From a virus, in UHGV virus genome UHGV-1421865: a DNA stretch of 64,000 nt. The stretch is one strand, 5' to 3'. A program made the position numbers and the translations under genes. Every line of letters begins with the position of its first letter. Position 1 is the stretch's first letter. Shown in pieces: positions 6,079 to 63,025 of the stretch. Below the pieces are notes generated by a model. It did not search any database. It was given only the letters and a program-made list of their open reading frames with translations, and was not told the DNA's origin.

Positions 6079-6180
6079 CTGTGACGCACGATTTTTCTTT
6101 GACCTTAGAGTACCAAGATCAACACATTTGAGTGCGTCAGAGAGCCTAAAAAGTGCCAAAGAATCGATTCTATGTTGCAC
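6079..6180. repeat. Conserved intergenic structured palindromic element, copy 1 (plus form).
   Basis: gtgacgcacgatttttctttgaccttagagtaccaagatcaacacatttgagtgcgtcagagagcctaaaaagtgcc. Outer inverted repeat gacgcac/gtgcgtc. Confidence 0.8.
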
Positions 6181-6226
6181 ATACTAGTACACATAACAAA
6201 TATAGACTGATACAGACTGTAAAAGA

Positions 6227-6571
6227 CTATCTAAACTGATACTGACGTTCACCTTCGGTATCTGTTTTTTCGTCGTAGATGTTTATTATAACGTGATATA
6301 TACTGCGATAGTCGCCGTCGAGTAGTTTGACTTCTACGCTATGCTTCATCTGTGACAGATAAAAAGTGTCTTTAATATGTTCTTTAATGTATTCTTCGAC
6401 GCGTGTCGTAGACGGATTCATGTCCCAGAGAAATTGATCGAAGTTGGTACCGAACTGCGGTTCTCCTATCAGCTCTGTATTTTCTGTATTAAATAACATA
6501 TCTAGTTCTTGTAGGGCAGCGTCTAATTCCGACGTCAAGAACACTCTACTGTCTATGGCTAAATCCAACAT
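6227..6571 (-). CDS. Hypothetical protein, 114 aa.
   Basis: ORF with ATG start, packed tightly against the 6580..8487 gene. Confidence 0.5.
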   Translation of the reverse strand: MLDLAIDSRVFLTSELDAALQELDMLFNTENTELIGEPQFGTNFDQFLWDMNPSTTRVEEYIKEHIKDTFYLSQMKHSVEVKLLDGDYRSIYHVIINIYDEKTDTEGERQYQFR

Positions 6572-6579
6572 TGTTTTTA

Positions 6580-8487
6580 TTATATAGATTGATTGATAGA
6601 ATACGTACCGGATGAAAGATATGTATCGTCGTCTACTATGATGTCGAAGACACCCGAAATGTCGACTATATCGCTTGCCTTTATCTTAAATATAACAAAC
6701 GATTCGTTTCGTCCGATTTCTTTGTACTCTTTACCTCCGATACTGATACAAAATAGGTCTACCTTTGTCATATAGTTACCTAAATTGATACCTATATTCT
6801 GTTCTATGCGGGGACGAAGATTGATATGCTGTAAGTTTTGTACTTTATAGAATATCGGCTTATAAAGTATCTGTTTGTCTAAATTGTTGTTTATAATAGA
6901 CTGTTTAGTACTACACTCGCTGTCTACATTAGGATCTACGATATGACAGTTTAATTTATCTATAAATTTGAATTTAGATGCGTCTTGTATTTCCATGTCG
7001 GATTGAATATGAATATGTTGTTTTTGTGACGTCACAATGTACTTGTACCATTCGTCTGTTATAATAACGTCGTTGGAATTTATCACAGTACCGGTATATC
7101 GGTCTACAAAAGCGACTCGGCATACAAGGAACGCCGGTTTTTGTTTCCACGACTTAAATATGTTATATAAAGGAAAACTAAATGACGACAGGCTACTTAA
7201 ATCACTATTTTCGTTACGTGAATAGACAATGTTTTTATATAGTCGATCGGTTGCTATTTCGATGCGATAACCCAGGAACAGTTCGTCTGTATGCAGCGAT
7301 GCTTCGTACTCTTCTCTTATAACACTCTTTCGCATCTCCTTATATAACTCTAATGTCTTGTTATCGTCTAAAATCCATTTATAGATAAGGTTGTTTCGTT
7401 TGATATGAACATAGTAGTCTATGAGTTGCTGTTTGTCTGTTTCTGTTATAGTAGTAATAGCGTCTACGTCGGCGTACATGTCGTCTACTATGCGTTCTTT
7501 AGAATATACTTCATATTCCGATTCTGTGACACAAAAATGGTACTTGTACGCTTCCAACAAACCGCCGTCGGTACGAGGGAATTTATCGTAAGAATGATTA
7601 AAGTTACTTATAATAGACACTTCTCCGTTTTCAAACCCTAATTTAGACGTTAGTTCGAATCGATTTGTATCGGCTAAAACACAAGTACCGACACCTACGG
7701 TATCGTCTGTTTCGTACCTGTTTTCGTCTACCGTTCTGTACGGTAATAGTGTTATTGTTATATTATAAGGCGATCTGTGTTTTCGTTTAAGATATTGCTT
7801 TGTGTATATCGTATTATCGTCGTACTGTTCCGACACTATTTTGTACGGGTATTCGAACAGATTCATGCTAATAAACTGTTTATTACCCAATATAGTAGAT
7901 ACTTTATTGACAAAACCGGATTGCTTATTGAACGAATTAAAACGAATAAGTGTAGTATCATAAATCCAACCGGACAGTAAATCGTCTAAATCCGGTATGT
8001 CGACATAACTGTATTCGGAATAAGATTTGTTATAAAGAGAATGCTGTGTTTTCAGTTCCGTCTCCGACGCCGTATTTAGTTGATTTACTTTATATAAACC
8101 AAGATGGATTTTGATACCGTTTATATAAGAGGTAATGTGTACAATTTTAGGTACGTCGACGTCTGTTATAGGGTGGTAGATCTTGATTCTTCGTGTTCGT
8201 ACTTTCTTTGTCAGCATCTTGTCCTCTTGCCGTGTGTAGATAGGAGACGATTCCAGTTCGTAGTTGACAAATTCGGTCTTATCTGTACTATATAAACGGT
8301 TATTGTTTTGTACCGGGTACAGTTCTTGCTCTATAGACGAAGCTACAATAAACAAATCGGTGTCGTTAAGTACTTTATTTTTATAGTCGACAGAGCGTAT
8401 AACATTAAACGTATCGTAACGCTCCGAGTCATCGACTTCTAATTTATACGAATACGACCCTAATTGAACGTTGTATATCTTGCCCAT
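6580..8487 (-). CDS. Hypothetical protein, 635 aa.
   Basis: Long ORF with ATG start. Confidence 0.6.
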   Translation of the reverse strand: MGKIYNVQLGSYSYKLEVDDSERYDTFNVIRSVDYKNKVLNDTDLFIVASSIEQELYPVQNNNRLYSTDKTEFVNYELESSPIYTRQEDKMLTKKVRTRRIKIYHPITDVDVPKIVHITSYINGIKIHLGLYKVNQLNTASETELKTQHSLYNKSYSEYSYVDIPDLDDLLSGWIYDTTLIRFNSFNKQSGFVNKVSTILGNKQFISMNLFEYPYKIVSEQYDDNTIYTKQYLKRKHRSPYNITITLLPYRTVDENRYETDDTVGVGTCVLADTNRFELTSKLGFENGEVSIISNFNHSYDKFPRTDGGLLEAYKYHFCVTESEYEVYSKERIVDDMYADVDAITTITETDKQQLIDYYVHIKRNNLIYKWILDDNKTLELYKEMRKSVIREEYEASLHTDELFLGYRIEIATDRLYKNIVYSRNENSDLSSLSSFSFPLYNIFKSWKQKPAFLVCRVAFVDRYTGTVINSNDVIITDEWYKYIVTSQKQHIHIQSDMEIQDASKFKFIDKLNCHIVDPNVDSECSTKQSIINNNLDKQILYKPIFYKVQNLQHINLRPRIEQNIGINLGNYMTKVDLFCISIGGKEYKEIGRNESFVIFKIKASDIVDISGVFDIIVDDDTYLSSGTYSINQSI

Positions 8488-8599
8488 GTGCAGTTATTGT
8501 CTCTTTATATATGAAAATCCCATGTCTCTACATTGATTTTTGTCTTCAAATGTACTATATTTTAACTACGAACAAGAAAATAAACAACAGCATACTACA

Positions 8600-8866
8600 A
8601 TGGAACAAACAAAAACATATCAAACAGCTATTCTGACAGCCCTTAAACGTCTACAAGAACAGTGCGTAGACACAAATCCTGAACTTTATTCTATTGTAGA
8701 AGAATTTGAACGGTTGTACGATGTGGAAAACAGCACTTTCGGTAGCCTCTATCTACTGAATTTGGATCTCTATACGACACTCGTTATAACAGAAGATGTA
8801 GAGCTCCAACCCTACATTAGCATTCTTATCGATATTATTGAGAATTTCCCTACATTTTTCTCTTAA
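8600..8866 (+). CDS. Hypothetical small protein.
   Basis: ATG at 8600 (MEQTKTYQTAILTALKRLQEQ..). The track start at 8540 is a TTG. Confidence 0.35.
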   Translation: MEQTKTYQTAILTALKRLQEQCVDTNPELYSIVEEFERLYDVENSTFGSLYLLNLDLYTTLVITEDVELQPYISILIDIIENFPTFFS

Positions 8867-8931
8867 GAAAAGATGCTAATCTGGGGTCGTACGGGATTTT
8901 TACGTATAACAGATACGAACAAGAACAATAT

Positions 8932-12033: not shown

Positions 12034-12861
12034 ATGATCAACACAGCCTCAACAAGTCTCAACAAGCCCCCCCAAGACCAACATAAACCAGTACAGCCAG
12101 ATCAAGTATTAGAAGGTCTCGACGATTCAGAACGTCTTGTGTACCAACTACGGTCAGTACAGATGGATTTATTGAAGTCATGTATAGAGGGTTTCTCGTC
12201 TGAACAAATGGATGACGGTCATGCAGGTATCGACTACATCAACTATGCCGCTACTATGCCGATGGGCAGCGCTGAATTAGGTATCGATTCGTTATCAGAA
12301 TTTACTAACTATAACGGTTCTATACCTACTAACAAAGTCGCCGCAGCACTTAAAGTACCTAAACAATATAGTAACCGACTAGCGGCGTCGATAGCGATGC
12401 TCGACAAGTATGCACCTCAACTTGGCCTGAATAGTACAGGTAAGGTGTTATTGTTAGCACAGTTCGCTCACGAAAGCGGTAATTTCCAATTCTTTAAGGA
12501 AATAGGTGGCGCTGGTCGAAGCTACGGTCAACCGAAAGGTCCTTATGGTAAGCGATACTACGGACGAGGTCCGATACAAGTAACCCACGATTATAATTAT
12601 AAGGATATATACGAAAAGGCATTCCCGCAAATGGGACTGTCACAGTACAATATCTATGCTAATCCGGACCTGTGTGAAACAAACGACGTTATCGCTATTG
12701 CAGCAACCTTAGGATTTCTAATGTTGAACAAACGAGTCATAGAAGCCGCTAATTCTGGTGACATTAGAAAGACTACACGATATATCAACGGCGGACAAAA
12801 CGGTCTCGACGATCGTATAAAAAAGACTGGGCAGATCATATCGGCGCTGTCGACGACTTGA
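12034..12861 (+). CDS. Glycoside hydrolase family 19 (chitinase-like) endolysin.
   Basis: LLAQFAHESGNFQFFKEIG...YYGRGPIQVTHDYNYKD...INGGQNGLDDR matches the GH19 catalytic core (HESG..E.., GRG.IQ.T, INGG.NG). ATG at 12034; an alternative TTG at 11986 overlaps the upstream stop. Confidence 0.8.
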   Translation: MINTASTSLNKPPQDQHKPVQPDQVLEGLDDSERLVYQLRSVQMDLLKSCIEGFSSEQMDDGHAGIDYINYAATMPMGSAELGIDSLSEFTNYNGSIPTNKVAAALKVPKQYSNRLAASIAMLDKYAPQLGLNSTGKVLLLAQFAHESGNFQFFKEIGGAGRSYGQPKGPYGKRYYGRGPIQVTHDYNYKDIYEKAFPQMGLSQYNIYANPDLCETNDVIAIAATLGFLMLNKRVIEAANSGDIRKTTRYINGGQNGLDDRIKKTGQIISALSTT

Positions 12862-13585: not shown

Positions 13586-13640
13586 CAAAGGTAGGACCTT
13601 ATTTTGGGTTCTACCTTTATTCGATTTTTGGTCGATTTTT
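13586..13640 (+). terminator. Rho-independent terminator.
   Basis: Stem caaaggtaggacc / ggttctaccttt, followed by ttcgatttttggtcgattttt. Confidence 0.6.
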
Positions 13641-18669: not shown

Positions 18670-18710
18670 AAGAGACAGCTTCTAAAATTAGGAGCTGCCT
18701 CTATTTTTTA
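18670..18710. terminator. Probable bidirectional hairpin terminator between convergent genes.
   Basis: agagacagcttc..taaaatta..ggagctgcctct, with T-runs on both flanks. Confidence 0.45.
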
Positions 18711-18751
18711 TACTGTTAAGTCAAATACTGTTAAGTTAAATACTGATATAG

Positions 18752-19618
18752 TTAAATGTTGATAAACCTATTCGGTTCTGGTTTGTCTTCGACTGACGTA
18801 TCAACTGTGTTTGTAACACTATTCACGTCTGTATTAGTACTGTCGTTGACTGTAGTACTGTCGTTGACTACTGTAGTAGGGCTAACTGTTGACGTATCAA
18901 CTATGTTTGTACTGTCTGTATTAGAAATGCCCCCGACTATGTTGTTCACTGTATTAGTATCGTCTACTGCAGTGTTGTTTAGCGTTTTATTGTGTGTGAT
19001 AGTACTGTCACTGACTACTGTAGTAGGACTAACTGTTGGTATATCAACTGTGTCTACCGTCGAACTTTCATTGACTACATTAGTACTAGTATCATCTGTA
19101 TTGGATTTGACTGTAGTAGGTTGTACGTCAATGGTGTCATCAGGAGACTCTAACGACGCATCAGAACCGTTGATAAAGTCTGCCAGGGTCGATGTCATCA
19201 GTAGTGCAATGATAGGTAGTATCGCACCTACAATATAAGTGACAATAACAGTTGTCATTTTATCGGGTAGATTCGTCCATATAAAGATAGGATCTTTGAA
19301 GTATTGTAGGTCTGCAACACTATTTGTTACAATGTACTTATATGACGCAAAGATATTACCCATTACCTGGACTATCGTCAGTACTGTCATCAACACCCAC
19401 GGTACGACCTTCGATTGTTCTTTCTTCGTCGACAAGATACTGAACAGCACCACTGCCTGGCCGATTTCGAAAGCAATACCCAACAACACACTCATAATGG
19501 TCGTATTAGCAAGCCCAAAGAATGAGAACGAGTGGATAAGTGAAACGACTGCAACGATGACATACAAAAATGAAAACGAACCGATGTATAGATTACGTTT
19601 ATTAAGAAATTTTGTCAT
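18752..19618 (-). CDS. Polytopic membrane protein with a Ser/Thr/Val/Asp-rich low-complexity C-terminal tail.
   Basis: Four predicted TM segments, then repeated TVDT/TVVSDST-type sequence. Confidence 0.55.
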   Translation of the reverse strand: MTKFLNKRNLYIGSFSFLYVIVAVVSLIHSFSFFGLANTTIMSVLLGIAFEIGQAVVLFSILSTKKEQSKVVPWVLMTVLTIVQVMGNIFASYKYIVTNSVADLQYFKDPIFIWTNLPDKMTTVIVTYIVGAILPIIALLMTSTLADFINGSDASLESPDDTIDVQPTTVKSNTDDTSTNVVNESSTVDTVDIPTVSPTTVVSDSTITHNKTLNNTAVDDTNTVNNIVGGISNTDSTNIVDTSTVSPTTVVNDSTTVNDSTNTDVNSVTNTVDTSVEDKPEPNRFINI

Positions 19619-20266: not shown

Positions 20267-21388
20267 TCAGTCGTCTAAGAAGTCACTCAACAAGTCTTTC
20301 ATCTTACTGTCTGTAGATAGATAGTTCAAAATCTTCTTGATACGCGATGTGTACAACGATGTCGCAGCGATATTTTCTTTACCGTCTTCACGAGCGAAAT
20401 CACGCAGCTGTGCTTGTTTCTTGCCGTTCAGACCGTAAAATCGTTGGAATCTATCCAACTCTTGTTCACCGAACTTATTTTCAATAGCCTTGTACATCTC
20501 GGAGAATATCGATTTCATTTCACGAGCCGAAAGTGTACTGTCTGCCTGTGCCGACGGATCTGCCATACGAGTGAACAGGGAATCGACTGCATCTTCTGAC
20601 TTTGACAATGTCGCATCGCCGTCGATAGTGTTTTGTTTTACATATTTACCGTCATTGGCAGCCCTTTCTTTCTGTACTTCACCGTACGTCTTACGAATCA
20701 TATCACCTTCGCGTTTCATACCGTCTCTGATAGCATTTCTGATCATCCACGAAGCATAACCGACAAAACTCGTTGCGGCAATCTTCTCGTCGTCAGCCAT
20801 CGTCTTGTTCGGCTTACCATACTTGTTGAGTGCCCATGTGAAACCTTCCTGTGCGAAACCGAAGAGGTCGTCTTTGCTGAGGCTCGTCTTACCGACATAG
20901 CTGTTCGCGATACTGTGCATCAATGGTAAGTATTTGGTTACCAAGTGATTGCGTCCGAGTTCGGATTCGAAGTCATAAACAACAAAATCGACGGGTTTCT
21001 TTTTAGCCATGATACTGTCGAATTCTTGCCGTGTTTGGAATACCGGTACTTCTTTTACAGAGTACGAAACTGCAAGGTTATCGAGGGCCTTATACAGTTT
21101 TGCCAACGGAACGACCTTTGTTTGTCCGGCTTGGTAGAAGCTGTACAGCTTATTAGGACCTTCAAAATCGCTGAGGGGTTCCAGTTCCGGATTGTTGATA
21201 AGCCATTCTATAACAAACACACCGTCGTCGGAAAGATACTTACCGGCTACACTAAAATACCGTTGTAATTCGGCAGGTTCGAGTGTATTCATCGCACCGG
21301 GCTGGAGTTTAATGTTGCCGTTTTTAGCTTCATTCACACCAGATGATTGTGCTTCGAAATTGGACATAAAAGTTTTAAGAGATCTCAT
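20267..21388 (-). CDS. Sigma-70 family / gp55-like sigma factor with an N-terminal extension.
   Basis: Region-2-like NHLVTKYLPLMHSIANSYVG...DLFGFAQEGFTWALNKY...FVGYASWMIRNAIRDGM (compare DLIQEGNIGLMKAVEKF / FSTYATWWIRQAI). Region-4-like helix-turn-helix near the C-terminus (LRDFAREDGKENIAATSLYTSRIKKIL). Confidence 0.55.
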   Translation of the reverse strand: MRSLKTFMSNFEAQSSGVNEAKNGNIKLQPGAMNTLEPAELQRYFSVAGKYLSDDGVFVIEWLINNPELEPLSDFEGPNKLYSFYQAGQTKVVPLAKLYKALDNLAVSYSVKEVPVFQTRQEFDSIMAKKKPVDFVVYDFESELGRNHLVTKYLPLMHSIANSYVGKTSLSKDDLFGFAQEGFTWALNKYGKPNKTMADDEKIAATSFVGYASWMIRNAIRDGMKREGDMIRKTYGEVQKERAANDGKYVKQNTIDGDATLSKSEDAVDSLFTRMADPSAQADSTLSAREMKSIFSEMYKAIENKFGEQELDRFQRFYGLNGKKQAQLRDFAREDGKENIAATSLYTSRIKKILNYLSTDSKMKDLLSDFLDD

Positions 21389-24401: not shown

Positions 24402-25142
24402 ATGGCTATACGAATTACATCCAAGACGAAATCAGCAACATTTCGACCTACTTCGAAACTAGAACTAATCAATTATGTACGACAAGAAATAAACAAGCAA
24501 GGTCCGGATGCTGATTTGAACTTTATCGATACTTCTGAGATCACAGATATGTCTAAATTGTTCGCGGAACAAAAGATTGGAAACATCAAAATTGATTACT
24601 GGGACGTATCGAATGTGACGAACATGAGTAACATGTTTTATAACTGTAAACGATTCAATGCAGACCTGTCTCGGTGGGATGTCGGCAACGTGACCAATAT
24701 GACAGCTATGTTTTCGAATTGTTATAAATTCAATGCTGATTTATCTCATTGGGACGTCAGTAACGTTACCAATATGTCGGCTATGTTTAGTGGGTGTGAG
24801 GTTTTTGAAGGTACTGGATTAGATCGTTGGAATACGTCGAATGTCACTAGTACACGATATATGTTCTATAGTTGTAAACAACTCGATACCGATTTGTCTC
24901 GTTGGGACGTCAGCAATGTGACCGATATGGAGGGTATGTTCGGAAATTGTTATAAATTAAATTGTGACCTGTCTCGTTGGGACGTCTCTAATGTATGGAA
25001 CATGTTCTGTATGTTCGTCGAGTGTAAGGAATTTGATTCTGACTTACGAGGGTGGAACGTCTCTAATGTTACAAATAATAAAAATTTTGCCAGCGGGTGT
25101 TCAAAATCATTTCTTAATAAGTTACCGAAGTTTAACGACTAG
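24402..25142 (+). CDS. DUF285/BspA-like repeat protein, paralog 5, on the plus strand about 22 kb from the main array.
   Basis: MAIRITSKTKSATFRPTSKLELINYVRQEINKQGPDADLNFIDTSEITDMS leader, then seven WDVSNVTNM..MF..C..F repeats. Confidence 0.8.
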   Translation: MAIRITSKTKSATFRPTSKLELINYVRQEINKQGPDADLNFIDTSEITDMSKLFAEQKIGNIKIDYWDVSNVTNMSNMFYNCKRFNADLSRWDVGNVTNMTAMFSNCYKFNADLSHWDVSNVTNMSAMFSGCEVFEGTGLDRWNTSNVTSTRYMFYSCKQLDTDLSRWDVSNVTDMEGMFGNCYKLNCDLSRWDVSNVWNMFCMFVECKEFDSDLRGWNVSNVTNNKNFASGCSKSFLNKLPKFND

Positions 25143-25151: not shown

Positions 25152-26888
25152 ATGATTCATTTTAATTTCAATCCAGACGATTTACGTTTTCTATTCCTAA
25201 CGTACGACAATGTTAAAGACAAAACAAATTTGGGGCTGCTAAAGAAACATCTTAATTTAGTAGACCCTATTTGTTATTTGCCTACATGGGGTAATCGTCC
25301 GAAACAGACACGTGATTTCTTATTCGAATATGTCCGTAAAGAAGACAGTAAACATATCTTTTATTGTTCGTTCGGCCTATGGAACGAGGTACGTACTTTC
25401 TTTATAACACATAATATCGAATTTGACGGTCTCCTGGACAAACCGGAACTGTTCAAAACCACGTTAAAACATACCTTCGAAGAATTCAAAGATATAGTGC
25501 AAAGTTGGGGATTAAAGTACCCACCTAGACCGTACCAACTTGAAGCGGCGTACAAAGTCTTAGATTATCGTCGTAGTTTGTCGGAATTGCCGACCCGTGC
25601 CGGTAAAACATTGATTTCTTATATCATATTCCGCTACGGAATGGAATTCTTAGGTATTAAGAAAATTCTGATGATTGTACCGTCTATTTCGCTCGTGAAA
25701 CAGGGCTTTGCTGACTTTGCAGAATACGGTGAGTTCTTTAATACAGAATGTGTGTGGGCAGGTGGAAAATTAGTTAATTCTTCCAATTTAACAATAGGTA
25801 CATTCCAGAGTCTCATTGGGTATCTGGATCCGAAGTCAAAGAAATACAATCCACAGTTCTTTAATGATTACGATTGTATTTTTGTCGACGAAACACACCG
25901 TGCTACGGCAGAGCAAACGAAGACGATTATATCACAAGACTTTGTAAAGAACGTTAAACTGTTCTTCGGTATGTCCGGTACCTTACCGAAGCCTAAAACT
26001 ATCGAATGGTATTGTCTACAGTCTATCATTGGCTGTAAGATACAAAGTATCGAACCACGCGAACTGATGGACGCCGGTTTTGTCTCGAACATCGAAATCA
26101 ACCAGATCGTCTTAGACTATCAAGACAAAGAACGAGTAAAAGATCTGTATCTAAAATGTGCAGAATACACCTGTTCTAGTTTCGATACAGACGATGACGG
26201 TAACAAAATACCGCTGAGCGACCCACAAAATCAGATCATGTTCCGAAAGTCGCTACCGATAGGACTAGCACAGGTACGAGAGAAATACCTCACTAAACAA
26301 ATCCCGAAAAACGACTACATTTCTCTTATAAAAGGATATATTAAAGACAATGCCGGTACAAACAATCTCGTCGTAGAGAAATACCTTACACATTTCCTGG
26401 ACGAACGGATAAACTATCTTATAACAGACATCCTTCCCGACTGTAAATACAATACACTTATACTGGCTCACCATACAGAATATATCGGGCGGCTTTATAG
26501 TATATTAAAAGAACAATTTAAGGACCGCCATGTCTATATGATCACCGGCGCCACGAAGTCGAAAGAACGAGAAGCAATCAAACAGTCGCTAAAAGAACAC
26601 AACGATTGTATCTTAGTCGCGTCGTATGGTACGCTTTCTACCGGTATTACATTAGCTAATCTATGTTTCGGTGTACTAATGGAATCATTTAAGTCGCCGG
26701 TGGTGAACATGCAGTCGTTGGGTCGCGGACTTGGACTGTCAAAACTAAAAGACAAATACATTGTTTACGATATTATCGACAAATTTCCTAAAGAATTGTC
26801 TAATGCAATCTACCTCCAAGGCAAACAAAAACGAAAGCTGTACGACGAATACAGGTACCCTTATAACACGACTGTTGTAAAACTATAA
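25152..26888 (+). CDS. Superfamily-2 DEAD/DEAH-box helicase (UvsW/RecG-like class).
   Basis: Walker A LPTRAGKT, motif II FVDETHRA, motif III-like SGTLP, and a C-terminal helicase domain (LVASYGTLSTGI, QSLGRGLG). Confidence 0.75.
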   Translation: MIHFNFNPDDLRFLFLTYDNVKDKTNLGLLKKHLNLVDPICYLPTWGNRPKQTRDFLFEYVRKEDSKHIFYCSFGLWNEVRTFFITHNIEFDGLLDKPELFKTTLKHTFEEFKDIVQSWGLKYPPRPYQLEAAYKVLDYRRSLSELPTRAGKTLISYIIFRYGMEFLGIKKILMIVPSISLVKQGFADFAEYGEFFNTECVWAGGKLVNSSNLTIGTFQSLIGYLDPKSKKYNPQFFNDYDCIFVDETHRATAEQTKTIISQDFVKNVKLFFGMSGTLPKPKTIEWYCLQSIIGCKIQSIEPRELMDAGFVSNIEINQIVLDYQDKERVKDLYLKCAEYTCSSFDTDDDGNKIPLSDPQNQIMFRKSLPIGLAQVREKYLTKQIPKNDYISLIKGYIKDNAGTNNLVVEKYLTHFLDERINYLITDILPDCKYNTLILAHHTEYIGRLYSILKEQFKDRHVYMITGATKSKEREAIKQSLKEHNDCILVASYGTLSTGITLANLCFGVLMESFKSPVVNMQSLGRGLGLSKLKDKYIVYDIIDKFPKELSNAIYLQGKQKRKLYDEYRYPYNTTVVKL

Positions 26889-26990
26889 AAAATCTCCCCT
26901 CTGACGCACGATTTTTATCGTACCTTGGTACTACTAAGGTCGCTACATTTGAGTGCGCCAGAGGGCCTTAAAAGTGCCTTTACGTCGATT
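26889..26990. repeat. Conserved intergenic structured palindromic element, copy 2 (plus form).
   Basis: tctgacgcacgatttttatcgtaccttggtactactaaggtcgctacatttgagtgcgccagagggccttaaaagtgcctttacg. Confidence 0.85.
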
Positions 26991-27059
26991 CTATGTTTGT
27001 ACATGTCTATACGAAAAATAGAAACTGCCAAAATCAGCTTAAAAGTAGACCAAAAAGAA

Positions 27060-30931: not shown

Positions 30932-30965
30932 AAAAGACGATTCTAAACTACTAGAATCGTCTTTT
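30932..30965 (+). terminator. Rho-independent terminator.
   Basis: Perfect 14-bp stem aaaagacgattcta / tagaatcgtctttt with loop aactac, then ttaag. Confidence 0.6.
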
Positions 30966-30989
30966 AAGTGCTATATTATGTGTGATTTG

Positions 30990-31125
30990 TAGAGTTTCTG
31001 TTTTGTATACTGACGTGTAAATATCTGACGTCCACATAAAGGCACTTTTAAGGCTCTCTAACGCACTCAAATGTACTTACCTTGGTACTACTAAGGTCAA
31101 ACAAAAATCGTGCGGTACAGGGCAA
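30990..31125. repeat. Conserved intergenic structured palindromic element, copy 3 (minus form, extended).
   Basis: Reverse complement of the consensus. Also contains the extended 5' segment gtttctgttttgtatactgacgtgtaaatat, which it shares with copy 5. Confidence 0.85.
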
Positions 31126-31150
31126 GTTTTGAACGTTTTGATTTATACTA

Positions 31151-31834
31151 TCAATCAGATACTGTCACTGACGTGCTCAACATATTTTGAATGTCGCTAA
31201 CGAGGCCTTCGCCGACCTTTTGTAATGCACTACCGGCACCGACGGCATGAGGGTCTTGTGTGACAAATTGCTGACCCACACCGGCGATACTGTTACCCAA
31301 CGTCAGTAGCGCATTGTACAGTGTCTCTCCCAGTACCGTCGCCTGACCTTTATTAGGACCAATATGTACATTCTGTCCTTCAATATCGACGTTACCGGCT
31401 TTAATCGTGATGTTACCATTACCGCCGATATTAACATGGGATATGCCCGTCGCTATATCAATACCGTTTTTGTCGTCGTAGGTTATATAAGAGTTAATAC
31501 CACCGCCTGCTCGCATGAGTAGAACCTCGGGGTTGTTGCCTTCTGCATTTTTGATAAATTCGGATGTCGACGTATTAGGATCGAAATACGGTAGATACCA
31601 GTATTCGGAATACGCTTTTGTGTTCTTTAATAACCATATTTTATTACCTGGTACCATCATAGCGAATCCCTGGTACCCGAACATACAAAACGGGTACACC
31701 CACGGTAGGAGGTCTTTATCTTGTGTGTTATCGTCAAATTCAGACGGTACTGCACATTTGATACGACCCTTATGATGTGGGTCTTTAACGTCTAAAACAA
31801 CACCGGGCAACAACTCGTAGTCTGATAGTTTCAT
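31151..31834 (-). CDS. Baseplate central spike protein (P2 gpV / T4 gp5 N-terminal OB-fold type) with a short beta-helix.
   Basis: N-terminus GVVLDVKDPHHKGRIKCAVP (gpV/gp5 OB-fold signature). C-terminal beta-helix repeats GISHVNIGGNGNITIKAGNVDIEGQNVHIGPN. Confidence 0.7.
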   Translation of the reverse strand: MKLSDYELLPGVVLDVKDPHHKGRIKCAVPSEFDDNTQDKDLLPWVYPFCMFGYQGFAMMVPGNKIWLLKNTKAYSEYWYLPYFDPNTSTSEFIKNAEGNNPEVLLMRAGGGINSYITYDDKNGIDIATGISHVNIGGNGNITIKAGNVDIEGQNVHIGPNKGQATVLGETLYNALLTLGNSIAGVGQQFVTQDPHAVGAGSALQKVGEGLVSDIQNMLSTSVTVSD

Positions 31835-38223: not shown

Positions 38224-38282
38224 CTTATCAAAACTTACAAAAATCTCGTCTGTGACAACGTGTGGGACACGTTTTGTGTTCC

Positions 38283-38410
38283 ATAACGCACGATTTTTCT
38301 TTGACCTTGGTACTAGTAAGGCTGGCTGGTTTGGACACGATACAGGAGCTCTAAAGTGCCTTTACGGGCTTGTTATAGTTTGGTATACCAGTATACAAAA
38401 CAGAAACCGT
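38283..38410. repeat. Conserved intergenic structured palindromic element, copy 4 (plus form, divergent 3' half).
   Basis: ataacgcacgatttttctttgaccttggtactagtaagg...ctaaagtgcctttacgggc...gtatacaaaacagaaacc. Confidence 0.75.
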
Positions 38411-38442
38411 CAAAGTTGAACTAAAATAAGACTAAAAATGAC

Positions 38443-41193
38443 ATGTTTTATACATTAGCAAAAACAGATCCCGCGTTATCGGGGAAATTCGGTCTTAGTA
38501 TAGACTACAAAGAGCACACCGTTGCTAATTTGATGTCTTTAGATACTAAAGCGACAATTCATAATATACCGGTAAAGTTATATAACGGACAGTACGAGTT
38601 CGATATTCGTCGTTGTTATAAACACTATTATGATAAATTTTATGGCACTACAAGCGATGATCCTAAGATGTACGAGTTCGGTGCCCAGCGAGTACAGAAA
38701 CAACTGTTCACACGACAGTTTATGTTTTATGCACCGTTCTATTGTGACGCAGTGAACGACATGCCCGATTCGTTTGTTATCGATATTTATCGAAAAGACA
38801 GAATACTGTCGTCGGTGAGTATTCCGTTAGACGATAAAACGTACGTAGGAAAATACTTACGTTCTTATATAGAGAAAATAGACGATAAAACAATAAACAT
38901 ATCTGTGCGCGAAAACGGTTATATCGTTACATATTACGGTATTGATCTTATAAAAGGCGGCTTGGTAGAATTCGAATATAATAACCTACATTTTGACGAG
39001 AATGGCTTGCCCAATATAGAAACAGGTTATTTCAACAAGAAAATCGTAATGCGGCAAATAATACCCCTTTGTATCACATTCGACTTAGACGAGTACATCG
39101 GACAAGACGTGATAATCCAAGGGTATTATGTCAAAAACAACATTAAATTGCCTTTATATAACATAGATAGGGTAAAAGAAACAAACAAACCGGAATATAA
39201 AAACGCATTGTCGAACAATACAACACCGTATCTATTACGCGAACGACTCCGAGAAACAGAACGCGACTATACATCACCTGTCACCAATGTATATTTCATC
39301 GACGACCTCTATACAGACGAAGAACATACTAAATCATTAAGTGACTTTATCAAATTTGCACAGAGTAAAACAAATACAAGTCTATTAAAGAACATTCAAG
39401 ACGTCGTTAATACCTATCGGTGGATAAACCGGCAATCGACAGACGCCACGGTTGTCGACGGAAAAGCGATGTACAACAATGTACTGTATTCTGGACTGGG
39501 TGATGCCAAACAGTTTAGAATCGAAGTGAATCCGATTGTAAATAACCTTAATAAAGAACATATTGTATCGTCGCGTTTTGTTATCGACAAACCGAACATG
39601 TCAAATACCAGAATCGACATCAATACGAAGGAAGGTCAAAATACATTACGAGTAGTTTCCGAACACAAGAAATACACCGTCGATTTCAATGCGTTTTTCG
39701 AACCGACGGACGATGTCACAGACAAGTCCGATTTGTACATAGAATATACTGGATTTATAAACGAATACATCACGTTAGTCGACTTCTGTGACAAGGCAGA
39801 TGGTGAAAAAGATTATATAAAAAATAATAGACTGGACGGGCAGTACGAATATACCGGTATAACAGTGGCCCCGAATAGTAACTATATCGGCGACGACTTA
39901 TACGTTGCCTCAGAAAACGGTTATACAGAATACAACGATAAAGTACACAAAGGACGGTTATATAAAAAGCAATCGTTTATTGACATTACAAAATTCAAAG
40001 ACCGGATTGTATTTGGTGCGGCAACAAGATACACCTACATACCCGTCGACGAATACAATAACAACGGCTATTTTGTAAAGACAGATTCATTGTACAGAAA
40101 CTTGTATATTTTAGGATATACACCATACAATGTCATTAAAGACTTGGGTGAAGCTGTATCGAACAAACAAATGTACTGCCAAGTCGATAATAACAAGTAT
40201 ACCGTAAAAAATTTTAGTACGTTGTTCACATCACCGGAACAAGTTGATATGTTTTATAATATAGATAACGACAGTAGACTGTATAACTCGACTAGTGACT
40301 TTGCAGCCTGGTTACCTTACCGCTTTATCACAGTACCGAAGTATTTTAATATAACAGCAGATATATATAAGAAATACATCAAATGGGACGGTAAATTTAA
40401 GCACATGTTATATCTTGTCGCATCGACAGAAAACAAACCGGCTGTGTATAATCCCAGTGCGACAAAAATAGATACAACGTCTATATTAGTAGACCCTCTA
40501 TTTGGTAACTTCGTCCAGTTCGAAGATAACGATATTGCTTTATATAACAAATTAAGATCGAAATGCGACTTTATAAACGAGCAAGCCGTCCTAAAAGAGC
40601 ACAATGCAGCATGCTTTATACGCTACGACTTAGCACCCGAAGGGGTACGTTCAACAGCCAAAAAGTATTATAAGAAGATTATCTCCGGTAGTCGTAACAG
40701 TTATATAACAAGTCGAAAAGAAAACGACGTATTTGTCTACACATTGAACGTAAACGTCACGTCGGAAGGGCACGACTGGATTTTACCGAACATGAATATA
40801 GACGTACTGAACGATCCTGAATACGTTAAGGATAACATTAGTATCATATTACCGTTATTAAAAAACAACCTCAACTTGACGGCGATAAACGAACCTGGAT
40901 TTTTTGAGCGACCGTACAAGAATAAGTTCTATTTAGGTTATTATACTCCTTATATAAAACTGTTAGAACAAACAAACCAGTTCTATTATAAGACAGAAAG
41001 GGTAGAAAACAAGTATTTACAGTATAATAAACTGTTCCCCTTACAAGACAAGGTCGTTATACCGTACGAGACCGATATATGGCAACCTTTATTATACTAC
41101 TACGGCCTATCAGACAGTACACATTTAGCATTCTTACAACGTGTTTACAACGTCATCATAACAGATGACAAAATAGAATATACACTTTTATAA
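38443..41193 (+). CDS. Large hypothetical virion protein, 916 aa.
   Basis: Long ORF, Tyr/Asn-rich, within the late-gene block after terL. Confidence 0.65.
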   Translation: MFYTLAKTDPALSGKFGLSIDYKEHTVANLMSLDTKATIHNIPVKLYNGQYEFDIRRCYKHYYDKFYGTTSDDPKMYEFGAQRVQKQLFTRQFMFYAPFYCDAVNDMPDSFVIDIYRKDRILSSVSIPLDDKTYVGKYLRSYIEKIDDKTINISVRENGYIVTYYGIDLIKGGLVEFEYNNLHFDENGLPNIETGYFNKKIVMRQIIPLCITFDLDEYIGQDVIIQGYYVKNNIKLPLYNIDRVKETNKPEYKNALSNNTTPYLLRERLRETERDYTSPVTNVYFIDDLYTDEEHTKSLSDFIKFAQSKTNTSLLKNIQDVVNTYRWINRQSTDATVVDGKAMYNNVLYSGLGDAKQFRIEVNPIVNNLNKEHIVSSRFVIDKPNMSNTRIDINTKEGQNTLRVVSEHKKYTVDFNAFFEPTDDVTDKSDLYIEYTGFINEYITLVDFCDKADGEKDYIKNNRLDGQYEYTGITVAPNSNYIGDDLYVASENGYTEYNDKVHKGRLYKKQSFIDITKFKDRIVFGAATRYTYIPVDEYNNNGYFVKTDSLYRNLYILGYTPYNVIKDLGEAVSNKQMYCQVDNNKYTVKNFSTLFTSPEQVDMFYNIDNDSRLYNSTSDFAAWLPYRFITVPKYFNITADIYKKYIKWDGKFKHMLYLVASTENKPAVYNPSATKIDTTSILVDPLFGNFVQFEDNDIALYNKLRSKCDFINEQAVLKEHNAACFIRYDLAPEGVRSTAKKYYKKIISGSRNSYITSRKENDVFVYTLNVNVTSEGHDWILPNMNIDVLNDPEYVKDNISIILPLLKNNLNLTAINEPGFFERPYKNKFYLGYYTPYIKLLEQTNQFYYKTERVENKYLQYNKLFPLQDKVVIPYETDIWQPLLYYYGLSDSTHLAFLQRVYNVIITDDKIEYTLL

Positions 41194-54152: not shown

Positions 54153-54836
54153 TCAGTGTTTATACTTGTAAGAACGCCAGAACTTATGAATTTGTGTAAC
54201 GGTAGCCTTCGAAAAGTTACCTTCTGTGTACACCGCCGTAGCGAACAGTCTGGTCGGTATGACGTAGCTCTGCATTCTAAGTGATGGGACGTACATTTTA
54301 AGTCCGAATTCTATTGACTTGTTTATATTACAAATCGCTTCCAGTCTGTCTTGTGATATGATGGTGTACGGTTTATTAGACGCTTTATTAAAATACTTAT
54401 CGAACCACGGCTTGAATGTTTCGTACACTTTAATCAACATACGGGCTCGCGCGAAGGGAGGATAGTAATGTAAGTTAAATCCTAACTCTCGTATATTTCC
54501 GTCTCGTGTACGTATCATGCCGATAAATAATGTCAATGGGGTTCTGTCGTAGTACGGCAAATCTTCTTTGTGTTTCGGTTGTGTATAGTTAAACAGTACA
54601 AGCTGTCCGGGTAGTAAGTATTTCTTTGTCGGATGCAACTCCCGTTTTATATAGGCATAAGCCAGTTTCACTCGTACCGGTGTCGGCTTATTTAACAACG
54701 GACTGGAATTGATAGCATGCTCTAAGTCGAAGTTCTTGATCTCATCTGGACTATAAATATGTTTTACGTCCTGTTTGATGTCTCGAACTAGCCCCACAGT
54801 CTGTTCCGACTCGTTAATATGTCTATTATTTATCAT
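54153..54836 (-). CDS. Hypothetical protein, 227 aa.
   Basis: ORF with ATG start. Confidence 0.55.
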   Translation of the reverse strand: MINNRHINESEQTVGLVRDIKQDVKHIYSPDEIKNFDLEHAINSSPLLNKPTPVRVKLAYAYIKRELHPTKKYLLPGQLVLFNYTQPKHKEDLPYYDRTPLTLFIGMIRTRDGNIRELGFNLHYYPPFARARMLIKVYETFKPWFDKYFNKASNKPYTIISQDRLEAICNINKSIEFGLKMYVPSLRMQSYVIPTRLFATAVYTEGNFSKATVTQIHKFWRSYKYKH

Positions 54837-54877
54837 TCATTTCGGTCTGATTTTGTTGATTTTGTACAGTTTCTGTT

Positions 54878-55008
54878 TTGTGTACTGAGGTGTAAATATA
54901 TAACGTCCCCATAAAGGCACTTTTAAGGCTCTCTAACGCACTCAAATTAGTTGACCTTACCAACACCAAGGTCAAAGAAAAATCGTGCGTTAGAGTGGAG
55001 ATTTTACT
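54878..55008. repeat. Conserved intergenic structured palindromic element, copy 5 (minus form, extended).
   Basis: gtttctgttttgtgtactgaggtgtaaatatataacgtccccataaaggcacttttaaggctctctaacgcactcaaat..gaccttaccaacaccaaggtc..aaaaatcgtgcgttagag. Confidence 0.85.
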
Positions 55009-55014
55009 AAGTGC

Positions 55015-55371
55015 TTATTTAGTGTTGCCGTCGGTTGTATCGTCTTCGGTGTGTTTGTTTATATAAGTGCCGATTTCTTTCGACGCTAAATTGATAGCTT
55101 CCGATGTTTGTTTTGTATCAAGTTCTTTATAAGGAGGATCGGAATATGCCACAACACCGGGCTTCCCTACCCATAGGTACCATTTATTGTCTGTTTTACC
55201 TAATAGAAATTGGAATTCGTCGTTATAGGTGTATTCTATTTTCTGAAACTTTGAGTCATCATCCAATTCTGAGACTGTGTTACCTTGTTCGTCGTATATA
55301 TTAAAGACAACATCTCGTGTATTATCGGCTGCCGACTCTTGTAGTTTAATAAAAGAATATATTGATTTCAT
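55015..55371 (-). CDS. Hypothetical protein, 118 aa.
   Basis: ORF with ATG start. Confidence 0.5.
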   Translation of the reverse strand: MKSIYSFIKLQESAADNTRDVVFNIYDEQGNTVSELDDDSKFQKIEYTYNDEFQFLLGKTDNKWYLWVGKPGVVAYSDPPYKELDTKQTSEAINLASKEIGTYINKHTEDDTTDGNTK

Positions 55372-57207: not shown

Positions 57208-57285
57208 TTATACTTATATTGTATATAAATGATAATCCTTTCGTCTGCGTATTTACTATGTATACAAAACATTCAAAAACTTGCC

Positions 57286-57410
57286 CTCTAACGCACGATT
57301 TTTGTTGAGGCTTAGTAGTACCAAGGTAAGTGTATTTGAGTGCGTCAGAGAGCCTTAAAAGTGCCTTTATGGACGTGTCACGTATTTGTACGTCGGTGGG
57401 AAAAACACAA
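57286..57410. repeat. Conserved intergenic structured palindromic element, copy 6 (plus form).
   Basis: ctctaacgcacgatttttgttgaggcttagtagtaccaaggtaagtgtatttgagtgcgtcagagagccttaaaagtgcctttatggacgtg. Confidence 0.85.
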
Positions 57411-57617
57411 ACCGGTCAAAATCGACAAAATCAGGCATACTTTTATAGAAAGAATACCTGATTTGTACGTCACAGAACGATACATTGTACGATCTGTGTT
57501 CTATTCAACGGGATTGTTAGTACAGAACCGTCGGGCTGTACCTTCGAGACGTAGCCCTGTTTTTTAATAGTCGACAGTATATCGTCTGTTATGGGGTCTT
57601 TATTGATTCTAACACCG

Positions 57618-60815: not shown

Positions 60816-60887
60816 TTTAGATATGTAGTAGTATTCTATATTATTTAGTGTTTAACACCAGAGCCTATAGAAAGATTCTACAGAATA

Positions 60888-61226: not shown

Positions 61227-61253
61227 GTTGAATATCAGATATTTATTAACTCG

Positions 61254-61703: not shown

Positions 61704-61708
61704 AATTT

Positions 61709-61963
61709 TTACTGATTTAGTTTATAAAAGAAATTAAGTTTATAGTTGTTGTTTTCGTCGCGGTTTCGTTCCGTCATAGAACGATCGGCTTCGTTGATTT
61801 GTTCTTCTGTCCACGGCCCGTCTCCGTTTGCGTCGTAGAACTTGCCGTCTCTGTATTGAAACGTCGCTTCGTAGTCAGGTTCCCAGTTACCCGGTGAGTC
61901 TATCTTCATCAACGTCCAAAATCCAGGTGTCTTTATATCTCGAAGAAGTTTTGCTACTGTCAT
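61709..61963 (-). CDS. Hypothetical small protein.
   Basis: ATG at 61963 (MTVAKLLRDIK..). The longer track ORF has no clean start. Confidence 0.4.
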   Translation of the reverse strand: MTVAKLLRDIKTPGFWTLMKIDSPGNWEPDYEATFQYRDGKFYDANGDGPWTEEQINEADRSMTERNRDENNNYKLNFFYKLNQ

Positions 61964-62019
61964 ATTTTTTATATAAACTAGTGAACTACTTAAGAGTTTT
62001 ACTACTGTATTACTATTTG

Positions 62020-62211
62020 TTAAATAAAAGTACCCAAGATACCGAATACAACACACAACAAAGTAATAGCGATAGCGATGATAATTACACTTGATATGCT
62101 GTTAATAAGTAGACTAATACCTTGCCATAGGAGTCCGAACACAAAACCGGATACTTTGAAGAATACCCCGATGCCTACAACAAATAATAGGATGAAAAGT
62201 AGAACTGACAT
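62020..62211 (-). CDS. Small two-TM membrane protein.
   Basis: Sixty-three residues, almost entirely hydrophobic; ATG start. Confidence 0.35.
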   Translation of the reverse strand: MSVLLFILLFVVGIGVFFKVSGFVFGLLWQGISLLINSISSVIIIAIAITLLCVVFGILGTFI

Positions 62212-62246
62212 ATTAAATAGTCTCTTTTATTTGTATTCGGTTATTA

Positions 62247-62483
62247 TCAACAGTCATCACCAGACCAGTATTGTGGTCCGAAGTAGCTGTTTACACTACG
62301 ATCCATAATTGCCTCTGTTTCTTCGGGGTTGAACATGTTATAATGTTCTGCAGCACCCGGCTCGTCCATGTGTTTAAGATAATTGTACGTGTCGTGAACA
62401 GTCCATTGTTCGTATTCGTCGCACGTATCGATGATAGGCTTGAAGTATTCAATGTCGCTGAGAAGAGAACTGAGATTAATCAT
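62247..62483 (-). CDS. Hypothetical small protein.
   Basis: ORF with ATG start. Confidence 0.4.
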   Translation of the reverse strand: MINLSSLLSDIEYFKPIIDTCDEYEQWTVHDTYNYLKHMDEPGAAEHYNMFNPEETEAIMDRSVNSYFGPQYWSGDDC

Positions 62484-62571
62484 GACTGTAGCACTTTAAC
62501 TGTTTGACTTGTTTGTTATATATGTAATATAGCGTACTTTGTGAGCAAAATCAATACAACCACATAGAAAG

Positions 62572-62835
62572 TTAGTCCTTGAAGAGCATTAGTTTGTCGG
62601 ACAATACTTCCGTCTTGTATTTTATATCACTGTGTTCGATGACAGTAGCCGCGTCTATACTACAAGTTTCTAAGTCAGTAGCCTGCTCCTCTGTTATAGG
62701 TACAGTAGTGTATTCCGGTTGCTCACTGTCTGTACGCTGACACAAATACAGCCGGTTGTCTTTCGAAGACCGACAATAGAACTCTATCGGTTCGTCGTAG
62801 AAACATAAAATCTTAATCTTACCTAACTGCTCCAT
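62572..62835 (-). CDS. Hypothetical small protein.
   Basis: ORF with ATG start. Confidence 0.4.
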   Translation of the reverse strand: MEQLGKIKILCFYDEPIEFYCRSSKDNRLYLCQRTDSEQPEYTTVPITEEQATDLETCSIDAATVIEHSDIKYKTEVLSDKLMLFKD

Positions 62836-62969
62836 CTTTATCTTGTTTTATATACTTTATATAGTACATGATGTATACAAAATCAGTGCAATTTTGACGG
62901 TTTCTGTTTCGCATACTGGTATGTATAAACGTAGAATCGTAATAAAGCCACCATATTCGTCCTCTGTCG

Positions 62970-63025
62970 CGTCCGAATGGTCTAGCCTTGGTACTACTAA
63001 GCCTCAACAAAAATCGTGCGATAGA
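62970..63025. repeat. Conserved intergenic element, copy 7 (minus form, truncated to the inner hairpin half).
   Basis: gccttggtactactaagcctcaacaaaaatcgtgcgatagag. Identical over 28 nt to the inner hairpin of copy 6 (in reverse complement) but lacks the ccttaaaagtgcc arm. Confidence 0.7.

Follow-up and report, generated by a model that had tools for sequence, protein, structure and literature searches.

The window analysed here is a 64,000-nt stretch of the virus genome UHGV-1421865, from an uncultured T4-related jumbo phage with a genome of roughly 215 kb, and it holds seven copies, c1 to c7, of an intergenic palindromic element. Comparison of these copies with one another and with those of related metagenomic phages identifies the element as a clade-specific interspersed repeat, which occupies fixed intergenic sites, prefers gene 3′ ends and convergent junctions and often lies beside ordinary terminators. 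Among the strains sampled it does not transpose. The apical 9-21 nt of its inner hairpin have been inverted repeatedly, and recombination between two inverted copies of a neighbouring terminator has turned one entire copy round. As for function, we tentatively favour, by analogy and at a probability of about 0.4, a recombination-homogenised repeat resembling the REP, BIME and ERIC sequences and the PeSLs of T4, which would serve both as a hairpin cassette acting on transcripts in either orientation and as a homology patch.

Extent and anatomy of the repeat

The core pattern ACGCACGATTTTTN7CTT, with up to two mismatches allowed, matched seven times in the window, whereas dinucleotide shuffles give an expectation of 0.05. 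An nhmmer profile built from the seven copies recovered each of them (E values of 1e-44 to 1e-54) and no other sequence in the window, and a covariance model again returned exactly c1 to c7. The seven copies that a sequence-only reading of the window had proposed are thus recovered in their places by pattern, profile and covariance model alike, and their similarity holds under the shuffled-dinucleotide control. That reading had put the element at 100-150 bp and the mutual identity of its copies at 80-95%; the conserved unit proved to be 170-200 bp long, and in our alignment the copies are 65-81% identical over 156 nt and about 84% identical per column in a 117-nt core. The nested dyad symmetry that it described is present, with an outer stem of 14 bp (arms CCCTSTRACGCAC and GTGCGTYAGAGRG, enclosing 43 nt) rather than the 7 bp suggested. 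An inner hairpin of 7-10 bp lies inside this stem, and the nested palindrome as a whole spans 71 nt.

We refer to the strand on which that reading wrote its consensus as F and to the complementary strand as R. Along F, the element opens with two A-tracts about 10 nt apart (AAAACC-N4-AAAAATTTG, with AAAAATCTC in some copies), followed by the outer-stem 5′ arm and an invariant GATTTTT. The inner hairpin, TGACCTT-N9-AAGGTCA, comes next, then nnnCATTTGA and the 3′ arm of the outer stem. Beyond that arm stand a nearly invariant CCTTAAAAGTGCCTTTAYGG, a segment of about 30 nt that is constant in length and variable and mosaic in sequence, and an A-rich block, AAACAGAAACCGTCRAAATYAG-CTAAAAT. The 12-mer CGCACGATTTTT is invariant or almost so across the whole family. 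This includes a divergent subtype, comprising c7, partly c4, and L135_3977, L101 and L115 (L-numbers denote loci of the related metagenomic phages used for comparison), in which the arm opposite the 12-mer reads GGACGCGA and the outer stem is kept through an A-T to T-A double change together with wobble pairs. Conservation reaches 40-90 nt past the palindrome on either side, and the ends of the element are not inverted repeats. The architecture is of the REP/BIME type, with a nested palindrome and conserved linkers, an inner unit in both polarities and added hairpin units. None of the conserved blocks was found to occur singly elsewhere in the window.

Some other descriptions of the element were tried and rejected. 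A third conserved hairpin in the variable segment was ruled out, with a mean z-score of -0.2 to -0.4 and mosaic variants that disrupt the one good stem. A small peptide was dropped as a reading after the ATGs, checked by eye and not by a systematic scan of open reading frames, were seen to run almost directly into stop codons. CRISPR repeats, integron attC sites and parS were dropped for poor motif fit, judged without database comparison.

Related metagenomic phage genomes yielded 44 distinct copies. An eighth copy lies 3.9 kb past the end of the window, and each genome carries about 18-20. A pattern scan of metagenome contigs found true copies in ERZ651108 NODE-28 and NODE-4, BNJU01003715, ERZ1674171, ERZ1674155, ERZ773061 and ODJA01020362, and further copies came from strain genomes reached through the terminase cluster. 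A pattern scan of IMG/VR returned 60 single chance matches and no real copy, and GTDB, with 185,579 bacterial and archaeal species represented by a single genome each, gave 16 chance matches and again no real copy. Neither nhmmer nor the covariance model found a copy in sister phages whose terminases are 53-67% identical (40 loci, 751 kb), and the spacers after the terminase gene in these phages are unrelated in sequence. Since the family is found in close relatives and is absent from IMG/VR, GTDB and the sister phages, it is young and specific to one clade.

Fixed sites, gene conversion and inversion

All seven window sites have a counterpart copy at the same place in genomes that are 85-87% identical at the nucleotide level (for c1, judged by a similar 5′ flank only). 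The c2, c3 and c4 sites are occupied in five strain backgrounds. No flanking direct repeat or target-site duplication was seen at the copies examined. With copy positions conserved between strains in this way, there is no sign of transposition.

The sequences at these sites are less constant. L166, L169 and L171 are 93% identical to each other, yet their inner loops differ at all three of c2, c3 and c4: in that order of strains, the loops read ACCAACACT, ACACATACT and AGTAGTACC at c2, AGTAGTACC, GGTACTACT and GGTAGTACC at c3, and AGTAGTACC, GGTACTACT and ACTGTTACT at c4. The variable segment is likewise reassorted piecewise between strains, the variants being the same as those found in paralogues, and two paralogues 2.3 kb apart have identical cores. 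The copies thus undergo short-patch gene conversion among themselves and evolve in concert.

Seventeen loop variants occur among the 44 distinct copies. The loops AGTAGTACC (13 copies) and GGTACTACT (4 copies) are exact reverse complements, and three further pairs are reverse complements with one mismatch (GGTGTTGGT and ACCAACACT, GGTATGTGT and ACACATACT, ACTAGCACC and GGTACTAGT) while differing directly at 6-8 of 9 positions; by a back-of-envelope estimate, about 0.015 such pairs are expected by chance. Relative to the flanks, the window copies read GGTACTACT in c2, GGTACTAGT in c4, AGTAGTACC in c3, c6 and c7, AG-AGTACC in c1 and GGTGTTGGT in c5. The two loop states of the sequence-only reading are therefore as described for c2 and for c3, c6 and c7, but c4, which it had grouped with c2, differs by one mismatch. 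The inner loop does occur in both polarities relative to its flanks, as that reading had proposed: c2 and c3 are oppositely oriented, so that the copies surrounding the loop are reverse complements, and the 21 nt at 26921-26941 and 31078-31098, which include asymmetric stem positions, are identical on the plus strand. For the quasi-palindromic loop pair a path of three point changes is possible, both intermediates of which were observed; for the other loop pairs, only inversion fits. The inner loop has been truly inverted in at least three loop families.

Inversion has also affected an entire element. L135 and L137 are 93-96% identical and carry one whole copy in opposite orientations, the breakpoints of this inversion falling within two inverted copies, each of about 40 bp, of a local terminator. 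The same terminator-element-terminator arrangement is seen at L137 5550-5784, L135 313-548 and L105 10897-11131; the terminator sequence is specific to each locus, and these bracketing copies are the inverted repeats used in the whole-element inversion. No gene gain or loss was seen beside copies in the regions compared.

The simplest account of the inner-loop inversions is that the DNA itself folds into a hairpin or cruciform, whose loop would then be flipped by strand switching or by recombination in the stem, as has been invoked for chloroplast hairpins. The active homologous recombination of T4-type phages would keep the family homogeneous. The suggestion of hairpin-mediated events at the DNA level is supported as a description of how the repeat evolves, by loop inversion, whole-element inversion and gene conversion.

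Several small insertions lie in or beside the repeat. The insert in the outer-stem 5′ arm of c4 (Table 1) is missing from the orthologous copy in four other strains, which gives a filled and an empty version of the site. It is one instance of a mini-element of 29-33 nt, (A)ACRYCGTGTGGGACACGTTKTGTGTDCCATA, that occurs at four different positions in or beside the repeat, always in one orientation, and is called terminator-like by the terminator scan; the mini-element is also present in L117, L137 (copy 1847-2133), L105, L130 and L132 (copy 12517-12745). It looks like a separate, currently mobile micro-insertion. A second insert, about 38 nt long, consists of two hairpins (TGTTCAC-TCT-GTGAACA and CAACGC-ACA-GCGTTG) and is found inside repeat copies in both orientations, after GTGCCTT in L136, L129 and L104 and, reverse-complemented, within the inner hairpin of L130 1422-1602. 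A third insert (GTTACCGAGGTAAC...) lies in the variable region of L117, L137_1847 and L115.

Assemblies of these phages break at the repeat. The short-read contigs L164, L168, L170 and L172 (Logan, about 7.1-7.2 kb) begin in c3 and finish in c4, and ERZ651108 NODE-28 and NODE-4, from one sample, diverge exactly at c7. Besides breaking up assemblies, the repeat may coincide with genuine sites of rearrangement.

Gene context and transcription signals

All copies are intergenic. In a table of 42 copies, the flanking gene could be classified upstream of 29 and downstream of 30. On F, the upstream gene was co-directional and ended at or shortly before the element in 21 of the 29. The downstream gene was co-directional in 15 of the 30, and the other 15 copies face the end of a convergent gene, mostly with a bidirectional terminator between. 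When orthologues were collapsed in a hand tally, about 18 unique loci remained, of which 7 were tandem on F, 3 tandem on R, 4 convergent, 1 divergent and 3 unknown. Convergent junctions are over-represented: they make up 4 of 15 classifiable loci, compared with 3 among the roughly 61 intergenic regions of the window. About 12 copies start directly after the T-run of a terminator, and in several cases a hairpin and a TATATAA box lie between the element and the next gene. The A-tract block (AAAACC..AAAAAT) forms the 5′ end of the element, and six of the seven window copies abut a stop codon. This gene-context pattern argues against an mRNA promoter in either direction and fits either an autonomous unit or an element whose presence at gene 3′ ends is tolerated or selected.

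Several statements about context in the sequence-only reading can be refined accordingly. Its placement of every copy within about 50 nt downstream of a stop codon holds for six of seven, c6 lying about 155 nt from the nearest stop. Orientation is mixed, as it said, with a split of five (c2, c3, c4, c5 and c7) to two (c1 and c6) relative to the transcription of flanking genes in place of four to three. It was also right that the copies are neither plain rho-independent terminators nor one promoter-terminator pair in fixed orientation, the latter being contradicted by a downstream gene that is co-directional in only half of the 30 copies. A plain terminator is excluded by the lack of a compact stem with an adjacent T-run: 43 nt lie within the outer stem, and the T-run is on one strand, 3-5 nt off. 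The scan for sigma-70 promoters and terminators calls none of the elements, and the ordinary terminators of the phage, such as that at 30932-30965, look different.

Table 1. Copies of the repeat in the window and features adjoining them.
Feature	Position	Strand	Description	Context	Evidence
c1	6055..6252	+	core ~6077-6146; 3′ third degenerate	antisense between minus-strand late genes 6227-6571 and baseplate wedge gene 4364-6034	nhmmer (E = 4.9e-44); covariance model (78 bits); single-stranded DNA fold
c2	26870..27052	+	core 26897-26965; inner hairpin 26921-26941, TACCTTGGTACTACTAAGGTC	begins at stop codon of helicase gene (25152-26888); stops just short of ATG at 27059	nhmmer; covariance model; single-stranded DNA fold
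c3	30933..31142	-	core 31053-31123; inner hairpin 31078-31098	convergent junction; between stop of 31151-31834 (-) and bidirectional terminator 30932-30965	nhmmer; covariance model; single-stranded DNA fold
c4	38227..38458	+	divergent subtype (GGACACGATACAGG); outer stem interrupted by 29-nt insert	between large terminase gene (36370-38223) and gene for 916 aa	nhmmer; covariance model (59 bits)
c5	54819..55018	-	core 54931-54995; loop GGTGTTGGT	between stop of 55015-55371 (-) and start of gp2-like DNA end protector gene 54153-54836 (-)	nhmmer; covariance model; single-stranded DNA fold
c6	57257..57463	+	core ~57284-57353	antisense between minus-strand genes; hairpin 57428-57464 comes next	nhmmer; covariance model; single-stranded DNA fold
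c7	62853..63051	-	divergent subtype (ATCGCAC ... GGACGCGACAGAGG); core 62960-63028	terminator hairpin 63058-63097 before; TATATAA-type late promoter and gene 62572-62835 (-) after	nhmmer; covariance model; single-stranded DNA fold
Hairpin mini-insert	38257..38285	+	29 nt, AACGTGTGGGACACGTTTTGTGTTCCATA; 'AC' on each side	in outer-stem 5′ arm of c4	
Bidirectional terminator	30932..30965		A-run, 13-bp stem, T-run; canonical; model of the phage's ordinary terminators	adjoins c3	
Two overlapping perfect TTTG-N19-TAnnTTTG	6020..6077	+	replace A-rich 5′ block of other copies	directed into c1	

Bacteroidota promoters follow a grammar of TTTG at -33 and TAnnTTTG at -7, with the consensus TTTG-N19-TAnnTTTG (PMC7366714). 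The element contains three partial matches to it, for none of which the full consensus is conserved. On F, TTTG(ACC) is followed after 22 nt, formed by the inner hairpin, by yrCATTTG, with the TA present in about one-third of copies by hand count; also on F, the upstream AAAATTTG has the TTTTTTG of a terminator 18 nt before it in about one-third of copies. On R, CTGTTTYG is followed after 20 nt by TAAC. In the window, TTTG-N19-TAnnTTTG matched five times, two of these at c1, against 2.2 expected, which we count as no enrichment, and c3 alone of the window copies fits TTTG-N22-TAnnTTTG. Perfect promoters are found at two copies and point in opposite directions, along F at c1 (6020-6077) and along R at L137_1847. 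A terminator-like hairpin with a T-run lies at 6238-6270 (+), about 160 nt after the promoters at c1, which run antisense to baseplate genes; promoters and hairpin could together form a small antisense transcription unit.

The products of window genes include a portal protein, large terminase, baseplate wedge protein, helicase, gp2-like DNA end protector, B-family polymerase fragment and sigma factor. By terminase, the closest cultured relative is Tenacibaculum phage PTm1 (31.6%), and a near-identity nucleotide search of INPHARED with the window gave no match. The 187-kb contig ERZ772909 NODE_12 is 100% identical to the window over the two stretches of about 21 kb that were compared, and members of the terminase cluster, which numbers 41, lie on contigs of 205-223 kb. 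A Shine-Dalgarno motif precedes none of the 46 gene starts listed, and the upstream regions are A-rich. Absence of Shine-Dalgarno motifs, with A-rich upstream regions preferred in translation, is the Bacteroidota pattern (PMC7366714), and the genes thus indicate a Bacteroidota-type host. Many genes have a TATATAA-type box, of the T4-like late-promoter type, 15-30 nt upstream. GGATTTT(T), which contains the invariant GATTTTT of the repeat, was observed 0-17 nt upstream of TATATAA boxes at 3660(-), 8519(-), 8895, 13623-13640, 21424(-), 22719, 22744(-), 36220 and 45286, and may be an upstream element of late or middle promoters.

Other features of the window lie apart from the repeat. The phage sigma factor is encoded at 20267-21388 (-); its 373 aa match PHROG 351 (E = 6e-12) and, weakly, Pfam Sigma70_r2, and it is far larger than T4 gp55. 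A paralogous gene group at 1-2042 (-) and 24402-25142 (+) contains repeats of about 70-110 nt (families D2-D8, D13 and D19) and inverted matches (I7-I11 and I14), and a related locus has DUF285 domains in the equivalent region. Short tandem and interspersed repeats (D16, D18 and D20; units of 15-147 nt) at 18701-19053 lie at or within the 5′ end of the open reading frame 18752-19618 (-).

Functional readings and known systems

We examined folding on both strands. The nested structure is 87% paired, compared with 27-44% when the partners are slid, and folds of both single-stranded DNA and RNA reach z-scores down to -5.5. R folds better than F in four of five copies as RNA and in five of six as single-stranded DNA, the RNAalifold energy is -11.5 kcal/mol for R and -1.6 for F, and outer-stem pairing is 90% on R and 81% on F. 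Mismatches of A with C on F, which are G-U pairs on R, outnumber the converse by 42 to 6 cells, but this comes down to 5 against 4 columns and is not significant. On R, an invariant T-run follows 3-5 nt after the stem, and a second T-run comes after it. This asymmetry is modest; it agrees with an R-strand RNA and is equally compatible with a hairpin preference of R-strand DNA. Rfam 15 gave no match at the gathering threshold across the whole window, with chance-level matches only at E <= 10 on two copies, and a scan of the window for tRNA and tmRNA found none.

In the explanation that we favour, the repeat would be a portable hairpin cassette at transcript boundaries, like REP, BIME and ERIC sequences and T4 PeSLs. 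In RNA that crosses it either way, the nested hairpin would be an attenuator of transcription, a target for processing or the source of a stable 3′ end, and the conserved blocks would act in DNA as homology patches for recombination. Several points weigh against this explanation. The transcript-level role is argued from sequence and analogy, and the hairpin is not a canonical terminator, the scan calling no copy. Several copies lie between two terminators, where little transcription is expected. Compensatory change does not exceed that of column shuffles: of 500 shuffles per strand, 88-249 on R and 112-356 on F attain the observed values, and the stems vary little; with covariation significant on neither strand, the stems are equally explained as a conserved DNA palindrome. 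Long non-palindromic blocks (CGCACGATTTTT, CATTTGAGTGCGTCAGAGAGCCTTAAAAGTGCCTTTA and AAACAGAAAC) are almost invariant, which a mere hairpin would not need, and this suggests sequence-specific recognition. Finally, gain or loss of flanked genes was not seen in the regions compared, unlike in PeSL-mediated shuffling.

Two rivals divide this evidence between RNA and DNA, and we consider each of them unlikely. Each copy might be an autonomous small-RNA gene on R, whose RNA of about 95 nt would start from a promoter-like 5′ block (GTTTCTGTTTYG, with TTTG at -33 in about 60% of copies and TAAC 20 nt on) and comprise a single-stranded 5′ end, AUAAAGGCACUUUUAAGG, the long nested hairpin and CAAAUUUUU..GUUUU. 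The limits of the conserved region match such a gene whatever the orientation of its neighbours, and the element tolerates inversion between terminators. RNAalifold, outer-stem pairing, the G-U excess and the per-copy folds all favour R, the T-runs 3-5 nt past the stem are invariant columns, and L137_1847 has its perfect host-type promoter at a fitting position and in the fitting direction. However, the wobble asymmetry of about 5 against 4 columns is not significant, and neither is covariation; TTTG is missing from the -7 box, and the -33 sequence is TTCG in 40% of copies; a gap separates the stem from the T-run, and hairpin insertions in the stem as well as loop flips are tolerated. In addition, the perfect host promoters at c1 face the opposite way, Rfam is without a match, and no precedent is known to us, no search having been made, for some 20 near-identical small-RNA genes in one phage. 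Many of the same facts would suit a DNA-level cis-element, an extrudable nested cruciform with phased A-tracts and three GTGC motifs on one helical face that phage proteins would bind or cut, whether as a hotspot of recombination or replication initiation or as a genome-organising or packaging site. Such a function would not depend on orientation and would accommodate copies between terminators, where transcription is low. The loop inversions suggest that hairpins form in DNA, both strands fold, covariation is no higher than a DNA palindrome would give, and the long invariant non-palindromic blocks suit recognition by a protein; moreover, intense gene conversion is centred on the repeat, and T4-type phages rely on recombination-primed replication. 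On the other side, the analysis identified no partner protein, some 20 origins or hotspots would be a large number for one genome, and this reading does not explain why pairing differs slightly between the strands or why the T-runs are conserved. Inversions and conversion also prove DNA events and not DNA-level function.

To three further readings we give still less weight. It is rather improbable that the repeat is a true PeSL equivalent on F, in which a host-type promoter (TTTG(ACC) at -33, 22 nt and TAcATTTG at -7, or alternatively the upstream AAAAATTTG box) with the inner hairpin in its spacer and a conserved A-rich leader would drive an early or middle gene downstream. An AT-rich stretch past the stop codon, a stem-loop between promoter boxes and a downstream ATG at the 3′ end agree with it (PMC2839356), as does the A-rich leader, a type preferred in Bacteroidota translation (PMC7366714). 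Besides the fit of c3 to TTTG-N22-TAnnTTTG, the 5′ block of c1 is replaced in register by two perfect host promoters, and in five copies an ATG stands at a fixed 145-156 nt from the anchor. Yet half of the 30 copies face a terminator or a convergent gene, only 15 being followed by a gene in their own direction, and convergent junctions are enriched. The essential -7 TA is present in only about one-third of copies by hand count, the others having TG or CA, and the 22-nt spacer exceeds the 19-21 nt of Bacteroides promoters; the window shows no enrichment of consensus promoter matches, and several downstream genes carry their own TATATAA-type promoter. Little credence, similarly, goes to the idea that the apical loop of a multi-copy non-coding RNA or cruciform-DNA family is deliberately diversified by inversion and gene conversion. 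If it were, the exactly complementary loops held by one genome, such as AGUAGUACC and GGUACUACU, could make kissing-loop contacts between copies or serve as a variable decoy or guide, and the repeat would be a recombination-driven diversity system within a non-coding scaffold. Least probable is a classical non-autonomous transposable element mobilised by a transposase, whether a miniature inverted-repeat transposable element (MITE) or a derivative of IS200/IS605 or REP/RAYT. The repeat is multi-copy, intergenic, palindromic, present in both orientations and confined to one clade, which implies past spread, and small hairpin units do insert into it, with one filled/empty polymorphism. The MITE-like interpretation of the sequence-only reading is nevertheless not supported by the structure of the element, which has an internal palindrome and A-rich, non-inverted ends and lacks terminal inverted repeats. 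Target-site duplications were not found, no site compared between strains showed gain or loss, the repeat is absent from the 185,579 bacterial and archaeal species genomes, and PHROGs or Pfam identified no transposase among the 29 distinct window proteins scanned, an incomplete scan.

Among the closest known counterparts of the repeat are the PeSLs (promoter-early stem-loops), stem-loop cassettes of about 100 bp that are repeated in T4-type phages and recombine with one another (Arbiol et al. 2010, PMC2839356; Comeau et al. 2014, PMC4122927). As with PeSLs, the genome is that of a T4-related myovirus, and a conserved intergenic motif, at least about 100 bp long, is present in tens of copies, which start at the upstream stop codon in an A/T-rich stretch, contain a stem-loop and recombine with each other. 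Unlike PeSLs, the repeat has no conserved consensus promoter, its orientation is independent of the downstream gene, and it is enriched at convergent junctions, whereas PeSLs lie upstream of orphan genes. Its 71-nt palindrome is nested, with an invertible apex, it is longer and much more conserved in sequence, and gene gain, gene loss and mini-circles are without evidence for it.

REP/BIME, ERIC/IRU and Correia elements are interspersed palindromic repeats of bacteria. They too are extragenic imperfect palindromes of about 100-170 bp that lie near gene 3′ ends in both orientations, are mosaic with conserved linkers, have variants with internal insertions and form hairpins that act, or are thought to act, on mRNA ends. 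The present repeat differs in belonging to a lytic-type phage genome and not a bacterial chromosome, and in having stable positions and shuffled sequences. It lacks the TA or other target duplication and the terminal inverted repeats of ERIC and Correia elements, and the RAYT transposase of REP/BIME was not detected among the 29 window proteins in the incomplete scan.

The loop flips have a parallel in chloroplast non-coding DNA, where loops of 4-50 bp between inverted-repeat arms flip recurrently and independently (Kelchner and Wendel 1996, cited in PMC12371153), leaving the flanks unchanged as here. Those small inversions are a mutational mechanism and not an element family; in the repeat, the arms are only 7-10 bp and the flips occur in a multi-copy sequence, mixed with gene conversion. 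The inversion of a whole copy resembles the invertons of Bacteroidales in that a segment of about 230 bp between inverted repeats is found in both orientations in close relatives at one locus. Unlike in invertons, the inverted flanks are ordinary terminator copies, present at only three of about 18 loci, no site-specific recombinase was identified, and the inversion was seen between strains.

The repeat therefore belongs to no named family, although its general kind, an interspersed intergenic palindromic repeat or regulatory cassette, is known. To our knowledge, such repeats are well studied in bacteria and hardly described in phages beyond the PeSLs of coliphage-type T4 relatives, and this is the first such family in a Bacteroidota-type jumbo phage. 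It shows that interspersed palindromic elements are present in such a phage and marks break points of the metagenomic assemblies of these phages. If a transcript- or DNA-level function were proven, it would reveal how such phages punctuate transcription or seed recombination. Its main interest lies in its evolutionary dynamics, since it keeps within a phage genome a clean natural record of micro-inversions driven by hairpins and of conversion between copies.

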